A stretch of 28,187 bases of DNA from Thermoplasmata archaeon (GCA_034667685.1 JAXDQU010000098.1:1-28187), one strand, 5' to 3'. Shown: positions 7,480-10,835, counted from the first letter of the stretch. A program made the numbers and translations. Notes: generated by a model from the sequence alone, not told the origin.

Positions 7480-7506
7480 GTCGCGGGGGCGAACCCCGAG
7501 GAGAAG

Positions 7507-7579
7507 CGCCGCCTCACGGATTTGAACCGAGGACCTTGGGATTAACAGTCCCACGCTCTACCGGCTAAGCTAAGGCGGC
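7507..7579 (-). tRNA. tRNA-Asn(GTT)
   Basis: Acceptor stem GCCGCCT/AGGCGGC, anticodon arm TGGGA-CTGTTAA-TCCCA, T-loop TTCAAAT. No intron and no encoded CCA. Confidence 0.95.
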
Positions 7580-7696: not shown

Positions 7697-8254
7697 TCAC
7701 TCGAGGATGTCCTCGTCGTCCTTGGCAAGGTCGGTCTTGCGCAGGTCGGGGACGCCCACGTCGCCGGCCTTGTTCTTCGGCACGGTGTCGCTGACGTTCG
7801 GCATGGCGCTCGGGGAGGAGGCGCCGCCCACGTTGGTCGATCCGCTCAGGCTGTTGGAGCCGAAGCCCGGCGAGGTCCCGCCGGCGGCGCCCACGTCGTA
7901 GCGGCTCGCGCCCAGGCTGCCCGCGGACGTCATGCCGCCCGTGGCGCCGGCGCCGCCCTTGGCTTGCGCCTTGACGTGCTGCTTGGTCTGCTGGAACTCC
8001 TTGGCGGTGGTGCCCACGACCTGGCGCGTGGTCTCGCCGGCCTTCTGGATGGCTTCCTTGGTGGCCTCGGCGAGGTTGTGCTTGCGCGCCTCGTCGGTGA
8101 AGCCCTTCAGCGCGCCCGCGACGGCGGCGACGCCCTTCTGCACGCTCTCCTTCACCTTCGTCTTCACCTCCTCGGGGCTTGCGTCCTTGAAGGAGGTCGC
8201 TTCGTTCGTCGTCCGGCTCATGTCCATGTTCGTCTCGTTCTCTTCGTTCTCCAT
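7697..8254 (-). CDS. Hypothetical LEA/apolipoprotein-like helical protein with Gly/Ser-rich disordered tail
   Basis: SD GAGGTGA (8268-8262) lies 7 nt before ATG 8254. A/K/E/T-rich amphipathic helices. The ORF-track N-terminus (to 8584) overlaps another gene and was discarded. Confidence 0.8.
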   Translation of the reverse strand: MENEENETNMDMSRTTNEATSFKDASPEEVKTKVKESVQKGVAAVAGALKGFTDEARKHNLAEATKEAIQKAGETTRQVVGTTAKEFQQTKQHVKAQAKGGAGATGGMTSAGSLGASRYDVGAAGGTSPGFGSNSLSGSTNVGGASSPSAMPNVSDTVPKNKAGDVGVPDLRKTDLAKDDEDILE

Positions 8255-8271
8255 CGTCAGTTCACCTCGAT

Positions 8272-9063
8272 TCAGAATCCTGCGCGGCCCCGGCCCGCGA
8301 ACGCCTCGCGCACCGGGCGGCCCACGTAGCGGATCTCCTCCTTCGACCGGCCCAGCCGGCGGCGCGTCTCGGCCTGCGCGGCGGCCTTGCGGCTCCGCTG
8401 CACGGCGTAGGCGACGCCCGCGACGATCGCGTAGAGCACGACCACGAGGAACGTGCCCAGCGGGTCGAAGAGGAGCTTGTTGAGCGCGACGACCAGCGCG
8501 ACGGTCAGGACGATCCACGCGGTGATCGCCACGACGCCGATGAGCGCCATCATGGCGAGGCTCGTCGTCAGGCCGCCCCACCACGCGCCCACGGCCTTGC
8601 CCAGCTCGTGGCCCACGCGTCGGGGCGCGGCGCGCGCGCGGCGGCTCGACTCGGCGACGGCGTCGGCGCGGACGCGCACCTCCTCGCGGAAGTTGTACGC
8701 GGCGTCCTTCACGTCCTCGACCTTCTCGCGCACGCGGTAGCCCGCGTCCTGCGCGGTCGACTTGACGCCGTCCGCGACGTTGGTGGCCGCGTCGGCCGTC
8801 GCCTTCGCGCCCTGGCGGATCTTGTCGCCCACCATGCGCATCTCGGGCGTGTCGGCCTGCGCGGCGCCTTCCTCGGCGGCCGCCCGGACGACCTTGCCGG
8901 CCTCCTCGACGCCGTCTTGCGCCGTCGCGCCCAGGTCGTTCTCGTCTAGCGCCGTCAGGAAGCCTTCGATGGCGCCCGCGACGGCGGCGGCGACGCGCCG
9001 CGCGCCGTCCTCCGCGTCCTGGCGGACGGATTCGTAGTCAGGGTCTCGTGTGTCGTCCGGAAT
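8272..9063 (-). CDS. LEA-like helical domain fused to a two-TM YqjE/phage-holin-3_6-like membrane domain; probable ATT start
   Basis: The frame stays open upstream of ATG 8841 to a stop at 9072-9070. SD GAGGTGA (9076-9070) lies 6 nt before ATT 9063. The extension resembles the downstream gene. Two C-terminal TM helices and a basic tail. Confidence 0.72.
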   Translation of the reverse strand: MPDDTRDPDYESVRQDAEDGARRVAAAVAGAIEGFLTALDENDLGATAQDGVEEAGKVVRAAAEEGAAQADTPEMRMVGDKIRQGAKATADAATNVADGVKSTAQDAGYRVREKVEDVKDAAYNFREEVRVRADAVAESSRRARAAPRRVGHELGKAVGAWWGGLTTSLAMMALIGVVAITAWIVLTVALVVALNKLLFDPLGTFLVVVLYAIVAGVAYAVQRSRKAAAQAETRRRLGRSKEEIRYVGRPVREAFAGRGRAGF

Positions 9064-9176
9064 GCAAACTCACCTCGGGATGCCGCTCGCTCGGCTGCGC
9101 AGCCAAAAGGGGTTCTGGCCGTTCTTTCGGAGACCCGGCCGTGCGGACGAAGCCGAGGGCGGCGCTTGGCTGCGCG

Positions 9177-10835
9177 TTGTCGCTCACGCCCGAGCAGGCT
9201 GCCGCCGTCCTTTGCGAGGCGCACGCGCTGGAGGTCCGCGCGGGCGCGGGCACCGGCAAGACGCACACGCTGGCGCACCGGGTGGCGCACCTGGCGCCCG
9301 GCCTCGCGCAGCAGTCGCGCTGCCTCGTCGTGACGTTCACGCGCGAGGCGACCGCCAGCCTCCAGCGCCGGCTTTCGTTGCTGCTGGGCCGCGACCACGC
9401 GGTGCGCGTCCTCTCTTTCCATCAATGGGCCGCGCGCGAGCTTCCGCCCGAGCTGCGCCGGTTCATGCCCGAGGCGGAGGCGCGCCGCGCGGTGGCGGAG
9501 ACGCTGCTGCGGGCGCGGCCCGGGCCCGGCTTCTCGCGCGCGCTGGGCGTGGCGCTGGGCGAGGACGCGAGCGCGCGCGTGCTGGGCGTGCTCTCCTACG
9601 CCAAGAACGCGCAGACGACGCTGGGCGCCGCGCTCGACGGCCCGCTCTCGAACCTCGCTCCATACCGGGAGGCGCTGGAGCGCGCGCAGGAGGCGTACGA
9701 GGCGCGCAAGGGCGATCGGCTCGACTACGACGACCTGCTGGTCGCCTTCCGCGACAGGCTGGCGCGCGGCGCCGCGTTCCGCCAGGAGGTCGTCGCGCGG
9801 CTCGACCACGTCTTCGTCGACGAGTACCAGGACGTCAACGGCCTGCAGGCAGACGCGGTGCGGCTCGTGAGCGCGGGCCCGCGCGGCGCCCGCGTGACCG
9901 TCGTGGGAGACGCGCGCCAGAGCATCTACGGCTTCCGCGGCGGCTCGCCCCGGCACCTGGAATCGTTCCTGAAGCCCTACGGCAAGCGCGGCGCCCGCCT
10001 CGCGCTGACGCTGAGCTTCCGCAGCGACCGCCGGATCGTCGCGGCCGCCAACCGCGCGCTGCCCAGCCGCTACCCGCTCCGTCCGCGCCAAGGCGCCCCG
10101 CGCGGCCTCGCGCCGGAGGCGCTCGCGTGCGCCGACCCGCGCGACGAGGCGCGGACGCTCGCCGACCGCGTCGAGGCGCTCCTGGCGGAGGGCGCCGACC
10201 CGCGCGAGATCGTCGTGCTATCACGCGCCCGGCACCTCGCCCTCGCCTACCAGGAGGAGGTCGTCGCCCGCCGCGCCGACGAGGCGTGGGCCGAGGACCA
10301 TCCCGGTGATATCACGGACGCCATCGACGGATTCCTCCGCGCCGCGCGGCGCGAGCGCGTCGGCCTGGCCGCGTTCGCCGCGCGCGCGGAGGGCGCGCTG
10401 GGCCGCGCCGCCCGCGTGCTCGCGCGCCGCGCCCGCGCCGCGCCGCCGCTGCCCGCGCGCCCCACCGCCGCGCGCGTGCTCGCGCTGCCCAAGGGCGAGG
10501 ACATCTTCCACGTGAAGGTCGCCACCATCCACGCCGCGAAGGGGCTCGAATGGGACCACGTGCTGCTCTGCGGCGCGCGCGAGGGCGGCCTCCCCAGCGA
10601 CCACGCGCTCCAGGCGCCCGAGCACGTCCGGGACGCGCTCGTGGAGGAGGAGCGGCGCCTGCTCTACGTCGCGATCACCCGCGCGCGCAAGAGCTTCCTC
10701 GCCACCTGGCCGCGCGTGGGCGAACGACGCGCGCACGAGCCGTGCCGCTGGCTCGCCTCCCTCGCCGCGTCCGGGTCGTTCGCATCCCTTATTCTTCAGG
10801 GCTCCATGAAGGAGCCATCAGGGATACACCCCTGA
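9177..10835 (+). CDS. Superfamily 1 UvrD/Rep/PcrA-like ATP-dependent helicase (compact)
   Basis: LTPEQ, AGAGTGKT, VTFTREA, DEYQD, VGDARQSIYGFRG, SFRS, TIHAAKGLEW, EERRLLYVAITRAR. Start re-called to TTG 9177. Confidence 0.92.
   Translation: MSLTPEQAAAVLCEAHALEVRAGAGTGKTHTLAHRVAHLAPGLAQQSRCLVVTFTREATASLQRRLSLLLGRDHAVRVLSFHQWAARELPPELRRFMPEAEARRAVAETLLRARPGPGFSRALGVALGEDASARVLGVLSYAKNAQTTLGAALDGPLSNLAPYREALERAQEAYEARKGDRLDYDDLLVAFRDRLARGAAFRQEVVARLDHVFVDEYQDVNGLQADAVRLVSAGPRGARVTVVGDARQSIYGFRGGSPRHLESFLKPYGKRGARLALTLSFRSDRRIVAAANRALPSRYPLRPRQGAPRGLAPEALACADPRDEARTLADRVEALLAEGADPREIVVLSRARHLALAYQEEVVARRADEAWAEDHPGDITDAIDGFLRAARRERVGLAAFAARAEGALGRAARVLARRARAAPPLPARPTAARVLALPKGEDIFHVKVATIHAAKGLEWDHVLLCGAREGGLPSDHALQAPEHVRDALVEEERRLLYVAITRARKSFLATWPRVGERRAHEPCRWLASLAASGSFASLILQGSMKEPSGIHP

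Follow-up and report, generated by a model that had tools for sequence, protein, structure and literature searches.

AUU-initiated genes behind a Shine-Dalgarno (SD) site have been described in bacteria, including infC and pcnB of E. coli. AUU is a poor start codon where it has been measured in bacteria. Initiation at codons other than AUG, GUG and UUG has been documented in both bacteria and eukaryotes. For the archaea, a full-text literature search found no gene shown to depend on AUU or CUG. Ribosome profiling of Haloferax volcanii placed about 30% of putative alternative initiation sites at near-cognate codons; the authors' account of these sites leaves them out of the analysis as potential false positives and demonstrates for no gene that it depends on one (Gelsinger et al. 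2020, PMC7261190). The locus analysed here is also archaeal, and it differs from the H. volcanii sites in that a conserved domain depends on the proposed AUU. The aIF1 of Saccharolobus is reported to discriminate against non-canonical starts in vitro (Monestier et al. 2018, PMC6237735). aIF1 genes are present in the genome examined here and, given this discrimination, they count against AUU use. Their presence carries no information on regulation, for which the preliminary description had suggested a setting of stoichiometry or a sensing of aIF1 fidelity.

The gene lies on the minus strand of a contig from a Thermoplasmata archaeon; the whole stretch of 28,187 nucleotides that was analysed is called the window below (Table 1). 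The annotated open reading frame, 8841-8272, has 189 codons. The preliminary description had proposed that this frame continues upstream to a non-canonical start. Direct reading of the sequence bore this layout out. The frame is open across 9069-8275; GAGGTGA stands six nucleotides ahead of an ATT, with all coordinates correct; and the next gene mirrors the arrangement with the same motif, a spacer of 7 nt and an ATG. The TGA within the upstream GAGGTGA is in frame, two codons ahead of the ATT. Because of this stop, and because there is no in-frame ATG, GTG or TTG from 9069 down to ATG 8841, that is for 74 codons, a full-length product needs the ATT. It is the only near-cognate codon of the open frame near the SD site; the next ones are an ATC at codon 33 and a CTG at codon 37. 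Initiation directed by the ribosome-binding site at this AUU, yielding a protein of 263 residues, is probably the correct reading.

The locus shares with infC and pcnB a near-cognate AUU at normal spacing from the ribosome-binding site, the lack of a canonical alternative, and an expected output that is low and sensitive to initiation fidelity. There are also several differences. The host is archaeal and uses aIF1/aIF1A/aIF2 and a non-formylated Met-tRNAi, not IF3. An autoregulatory logic is not evident, since the gene encodes a membrane protein instead of an initiation factor. Finally, with an in-frame GTG also present in the relatives, it is ambiguous whether the AUU is conserved as a start. 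The gene is most likely an archaeal addition to the known class of weak starts.

Table 1. Coordinates of the features at the locus and of the two comparable starts in the same genome. Positions refer to the window unless a contig is named.
Feature	Position	Strand	Remark
BRE-like box CCAGAAC of the presumed promoter	9112..9118	-	putative function
TATA-like element CCTTTTGG	9103..9110	-	putative; may be common to the divergent UvrD-like gene
Predicted transcription start zone	9076..9082	-	26-32 nt past the TATA start, by calibration with leaderless and tRNA genes
Shine-Dalgarno GAGGTGA with in-frame TGA 9072-9070 and out-of-frame GTG 9073-9071	9070..9076	-	7-nt complement of 16S
Spacer GTTTGC, 6 nt, with T run 9068-9066	9064..9069	-	one base longer than in orthologs
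Out-of-frame GTG plus 11 codons and stop, candidate competing mini-ORF	9038..9073	-	read from the sequence
Proposed AUU start codon	9061..9063	-	only in-frame near-cognate codon by the SD site
N-terminal extension, 74 codons, helical domain	8842..9063	-	conserved; absent from database calls
Remaining CDS with stop	8272..8841	-	PF07332 two-helix membrane part at about 8341-8571
Downstream paired gene, 185-aa soluble paralogue of the N-terminal domain	7697..8268	-	SD GAGGTGA 8268-8262, 7 nt, ATG 8254-8252
thrC, GGAGGTGA + 6 nt + CTG	G000:C75:20946-20962 (L057 487-503)		identical layout in G003 (L060)
fpg-like gene, CTG directly before Pro-Glu-Leu-Pro-Glu-Val	G000:C31:19257-19283 (L056 492-518)		

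GC3-biased codons had been noted in the extension. The GC fractions at its three codon positions are 0.85, 0.50 and 0.88, which is a coding pattern. Windows without any start-like codon amounted to 69 of 2876 controls; such a gap is uncommon, and it is not extreme over 74 coding codons. Among 41 related genomes that were searched, seven of the eight others in the family have an ortholog, and no further orthologs were found in the order (15 genomes) or the class (21 genomes). Scans of metagenome_contigs and genome_contigs for more orthologs returned only identical loci and one locus cut at its 5' end. The DNA of the start region is readable in five family orthologs (the start region of G008 was left out), and the extension is conserved in all five. 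The 14 other members of protein alignment A2 also have it conserved, and the core motif is kept in all 15. In the four genomes of the same genus, the match extends to query residue 3-12, that of G004 being in two pieces. The N-terminus of the G006 ortholog is divergent and uninformative on the start.

The extension shares 73% identity with G003, versus 66% for the remaining protein, and 21 of 23 residues are identical in the closest database relative (P0003). Comparison with outgroups assigned 3-5 lineage-specific changes in the extension to the present genome and 3-4 to G003. The NG86 omega is 0.35 for the extension and 0.59 for the remainder; these values are distorted by the extreme GC3, so that their absolute size is unreliable and they are usable only for comparison between the two parts of the gene. 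The extension evolves no faster than the remaining gene, under purifying selection and with no speed-up in this lineage. The reported resemblance to the downstream protein was recovered by tblastn (E 3.5e-4) and by a profile match at 7955-8200 (E 2.1e-7). Taken together, sequence comparisons establish the 74 extra codons as coding sequence that is under constraint.

The 263-residue protein is all-helical. AlphaFold2 placed helices at residues 108-198 and 202-256, with pLDDT 71-85 over residues 151-240. The mean pLDDT is 58.6; the model is confident only for the membrane hairpin, and the N-terminal domain is below 50. The N-terminal 150 residues are thus predicted to be helical with low confidence. 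The protein matches PF07332 (Phage_holin_3_6) with 29.7 bits, a narrow margin over the gathering cut-off of 28.4, and 11 of the 13 database matches (P0001 to P0013) carry a precomputed PF07332 assignment. An NCBIfam search for function gave sub-threshold GvpQ matches only. E. coli YqjE is another member of PF07332. The likeness to PF07332 consists in the C-terminal two-helix membrane domain, which is just over the Pfam threshold. The differences are the N-terminal helical region of about 150 residues and the soluble paralogue of that region encoded by the next gene. The pair with the 185-residue paralogue is found in the present genome and in G003, G001 and G004, and the family seems, on sequence grounds, to expand by tandem duplication. 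The neighbours examined, a tRNA gene, a glyoxalase-like gene and a UvrD-like helicase gene, give no phage context. The public protein P0001 lacks 76 residues, including one conserved domain, because it was called from 8835 with 187 residues. About half of the database orthologs look similarly cut, which would amount to a systematic annotation error in GC-rich archaeal metagenome assemblies. In G004, the ortholog is longer (G004:C50:24331-25877; L007, L015, L017), with an inserted repeat of helical segments and further paralogous copies after it.

The 16S gene of the assembly ends in ...GGATCACCTCCT; GAGGTGA therefore pairs with it perfectly over 7 nt. SD 5-mers were found at -20 to -3 of 106 of 522 well-bounded ATG starts, compared to 31 of 522 in the control window. 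The spacing from GGTGA to ATG is enriched at 4-8 nt genome-wide, and the 6-nt spacer is inside this range. Four genes have their first in-frame GTG embedded in GAGGTGA, and all four have an ATG 1-3 codons further on. Such GTGs are therefore normally parts of the ribosome-binding site in this genome, and not starts. A genome-wide enrichment of ATY after GAGGTGA was not visible. No RNA structure beyond that of shuffled sequence was predicted for the 70-nt start region (z = +0.92).

A TATA-like sequence upstream of the SD site, similar to one at a tRNA gene, had also been noted. CCAGAAC followed by CCTTTTGG (9118-9103) does resemble the tRNA promoters of the same genome, in which purine-rich BRE-like boxes (GAAAC, CAAAC) are followed by TATA elements, the CTTTTG type included. 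Three tRNA genes (Val-tac, Arg-cct and Asn) are also preceded by elements of the CCTTTTGG type. The position of CCTTTTGG is conserved in the genus; by manual count, 38-41 nt separate CCAGAAC from the GTG/GGT in the SD-like motif of the present genome, G003, G004, G001 and G002. Genome-wide, A/T 4-mers have their peak 27-31 nt ahead of well-bounded starts, both ATG and GTG; since the peak precedes both start types, leaderless mRNAs are common in this genome. The distance from TTTT at 9108 is 35 nt to the GTG and 45 nt to the ATT, so that neither falls at the leaderless mode. Leaderless initiation at the AUU was rejected on this ground, 45 nt being set against 27-31 nt. Transcription is predicted to start at about 9076-9082. 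The leader would then be about 3-9 nt for the GUG, and about 13-19 nt for the AUU, with the ribosome-binding site contained in it.

Several observations were made on this promoter region and on similar ones. The divergent UvrD-like helicase gene may share the A/T box, the plus strand reading CCAAAAGG (window 9103-9143). It has a candidate GTG start at 9141, about 36 nt from the box; its longest ORF call, from 9048, overlaps the start of the target gene and is probably too long. On another contig (G000:C40:5048-5080), a TATA-like CTATAGGG is followed first by GGAGGTGA and then by a GTG, 30 nt past the TATA start. The SD-like string there would be upstream of a leaderless transcript, and SD-like strings would therefore not always be in the mRNA.

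The start regions of the orthologs were compared at the DNA level. In G003, G001 and G004, GAGGTGA is in frame (GAG GTG ACN) and is followed after 5 nt by ATT, ATC and ATC, respectively; the in-frame GTG is 2-3 codons before this Ile codon. The spacer of the present gene is one base longer than in all four relatives (a one-column gap in the alignment), and the extra base moves the GTG of the motif out of frame and the TGA into frame. At the homologous distance, G002 carries GAGGGTGAT; it has no ATY, and an in-frame GTG is found 12 nt upstream. ATT is a rare codon, with a frequency of 0.0007 among coding codons compared to 0.0315 for ATC (about 2% of Ile codons), and it is kept in both the present genome and G003. 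Rare codons ending in A/T are also expected near 5' ends from mRNA structure, which is an alternative reason for the kept ATT. Among the database proteins, P0004 begins with MSPIPDD, P0005 and P0006 with MVIPDD, and P0007 with MHHEVTIIPDD; in each, a canonical start is 1-6 codons before the Ile. Six of the 11 database orthologs (P0002-P0012) were called from internal codons: P0002, P0003, P0008, P0009, P0010 and P0012. The called starts of P0003, P0009 and P0012 fall within the conserved domain, as would be expected of a gene caller if these genes, too, had only non-canonical starts. The idea of a conserved non-AUG start is ambiguous: ATT/ATC is kept 5-6 nt after GAGGTGA in four of five genus members, but G003, G001 and G004 also have the in-frame GTG, and G002 has neither the ATY nor the GTG of the motif. 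These sequences fit two histories. In one, the ATY start would be genus-wide, and the in-frame GTG of the relatives would be a by-product of the motif, as in the four control genes. In the other, GTG would be ancestral on a near-leaderless mRNA and would have been displaced here by a 1-nt insertion; either the pre-existing Ile ATT would then have become the start, or the N-terminal domain would have been lost from the product.

The in-frame GTG of the relatives and the one extra spacer base make a recent start-displacing frameshift the main rival, and a serious one, which we consider unlikely. It supposes that the genus start is the GTG within GAGGTGA, that a single T was inserted in the T run 9068-9066, and that the gene is now silent or truncated, the truncated product having 187-189 residues from ATG 8841/8835 and no N-terminal domain. 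The GAG GTG ACN in frame in G003, G001 and G004, with the 1-nt gap, is what such an event would leave behind, and the database orthologs beginning with M-S-P-I-P-D-D and M-V-I-P-D-D point to the Ile as perhaps an ordinary conserved residue, as does G002 with no ATY at the homologous position. However, the constraint in the extension is not relaxed, and there is no stop or second indel in 263 codons, a point that would weigh little if the event were very recent, since no decay would then be visible. Leaderless GTG starts are common in the genome and the GTG of the orthologs is only 35-38 nt from the TATA-like box; this distance is nevertheless past the leaderless mode, and GAGGTGA-embedded GTGs were binding-site parts in every control case. 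Moreover, ATG 8841, on which the truncated product would rely, has no preceding ribosome-binding site, and the present allele is the sole one seen in three runs of three studies. Since the closest relative (P0003) is also called internally, the out-of-frame state may predate the species. The proposal of an SD-driven AUU start therefore stands in part: the ATT and the coding extension are real and offer the best-supported route to the full-length protein, with the recent frameshift as the serious rival.

The two other alternatives concern the extra base itself and its consequences. If it were an assembly or sequencing error, the true sequence would have one T fewer and the gene would start at the GTG as in the relatives. 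The difference is a single base inside a short homopolymer and the coverage is low (depths of 5.3, 8.5 and 3.4 for runs X1, X2 and X3; contigs also drop rare variants), which would speak for an error. Against it, a run of three Ts is not error-prone on short-read platforms, and independent Logan contigs of the three runs are concordant, one of them being from a different study and year. The contigs of X1 and X2 span 8700-9400 with no differences; they belong to two studies, either of which may be the source sample. The contig of X3, from a third study in another year, covers 8914-9171; it has no gaps and differs by a single substitution, at 8947. The read-level check proposed for 9061 thus gave agreement between contigs of three runs from three studies, with no gaps over 9061-9076. 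As there is no indel in any of them, an assembly artefact is very unlikely. The full-length protein might also be made by recoding, that is, by a start at GUG 9073 and an early +1 shift into the main frame, or by reinitiation past the 11-codon mini-ORF. The GUG is near the 5' end and the frames do differ by +1; however, AGU-UUG-CAU has no slippery pattern for +1 re-pairing, the run of three Ts is too short for transcriptional slippage, and the mini-ORF ends at 9038, with the next canonical in-frame start 197 nt away. On these sequence arguments, +1 frameshifting, transcriptional slippage and reinitiation were rejected, and recoding of either kind is highly improbable. Assembly error and recoding, together with any other explanation, take up the small remaining share of the probability. 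The locus is contained in soil metagenomes; a search for RNA runs that contain it listed none.

For initiation at the AUU, we infer the transcription start, the use of the codon, its efficiency and any regulatory meaning as follows. The BRE/TATA promoter (9118-9103) would give a short mRNA leader beginning at or just before GAGGUGA. The 3' end of the 16S rRNA in the small ribosomal subunit would pair with GAGGUGA, hiding its GUG and placing the P site 6 nt downstream. The initiator tRNA would then start on AUU, the sole near-cognate codon there, presumably inefficiently, and the UGA within the binding site would shut the frame upstream. The next gene, encoding the soluble paralogue, has the same binding site with an AUG. 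If the membrane partner is translated from a weak start and the soluble partner from AUG, the pair might be made in unequal amounts.

Similar arrangements were found elsewhere in the genome by a screen for a strong binding site with a near-cognate codon, an upstream stop and no canonical start. The screen gave 14 rows, mostly spurious; it is biased by design to spacings of 3, 6 and 9 nt and was not used for statistics. Most of the 14 rows, and most of the rows with no start after a ribosome-binding site, were rejected as shadow frames or as having a canonical start in another frame. Two cases, thrC and an fpg-like gene, are comparable to the present gene. The thrC product matches TIGR00260 with 287.9 bits (cut-off 167.1), and in the alignments to other threonine synthase models, residue 3 falls on profile position 2-4. 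In G002 (L062), the layout is GGAGGTGG + 6 nt + CTG. The other orthologs start with GTG (G001 and G004), ATG (G006) or TTG (G007), at the same spot or within 5 codons of it. The N-terminal zinc ribbon has its first CxxC ahead of the next canonical start; this CxxC is conserved in six of seven orthologs and is CxxH in G002. A conserved CUG start of thrC in the present genome, G003 and G002 is therefore likely from sequence comparison. thrC is a cleaner case than the present gene, because a near-cognate codon is the only option in three genus members.

In the fpg-like gene, which encodes an fpg/nei-like DNA glycosylase, the CTG is 6 nt past the TGA stop of the upstream gene, and GGTGAT overlaps this stop. 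The N-terminus aligns to position 1 of five Fpg models and to position 2 of the Pfam domain. In the Fpg family, the N-terminal proline is the catalytic nucleophile. An ortholog was sought in the eight other family genomes and was not found; the assignment of the contig to the same organism is presumed. Both genes resemble the present one in having a strong ribosome-binding site with a frame-closing TGA, a 6-nt spacer, a near-cognate codon and a conserved N-terminus; the codon is CTG in these two and ATT here. The two cases would make near-cognate initiation led by a ribosome-binding site a recurring feature of the genus, and with them the use of AUU at the present gene becomes more probable a priori. 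It may tentatively be proposed, at somewhat less than even confidence, that AUU and CUG starts behind a full-strength binding site are a regular, selected feature of a gene set including thrC, with the UGA of the GGAGGUGA motif acting as an in-frame barrier. If so, archaeal initiation with aIF1/aIF2 would tolerate, and perhaps exploit, weak starts much like bacteria with IF3, and gene callers would systematically truncate proteins with such starts. The present locus, thrC and the fpg-like gene offer concrete sequences for the study of near-cognate initiation and aIF1 dependence in archaea.

The archaeal nature of the host was confirmed by TBP genes in the assembly and by the titles of the ortholog records, which are mostly Thermoplasmatota. 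The contig L027 of G003 is titled 'Proteobacteria bacterium', although it belongs to the same archaeal genus, with 68% protein identity at the locus; it is probably a mislabelled MAG. The 3.48-Mb assembly of 124 contigs has two tandem TBP genes (G000:C8:82749-83822), with four consecutive TBP-domain matches and open frames of 189 and 182 aa. In many tRNA genes, 50-70 nt of G+C-rich sequence separate a TATA-like element from the mature 5' end. These long distances suggest unusually long 5' leaders of the tRNAs, tRNA-Asn of the window (7506-7579) being one example.
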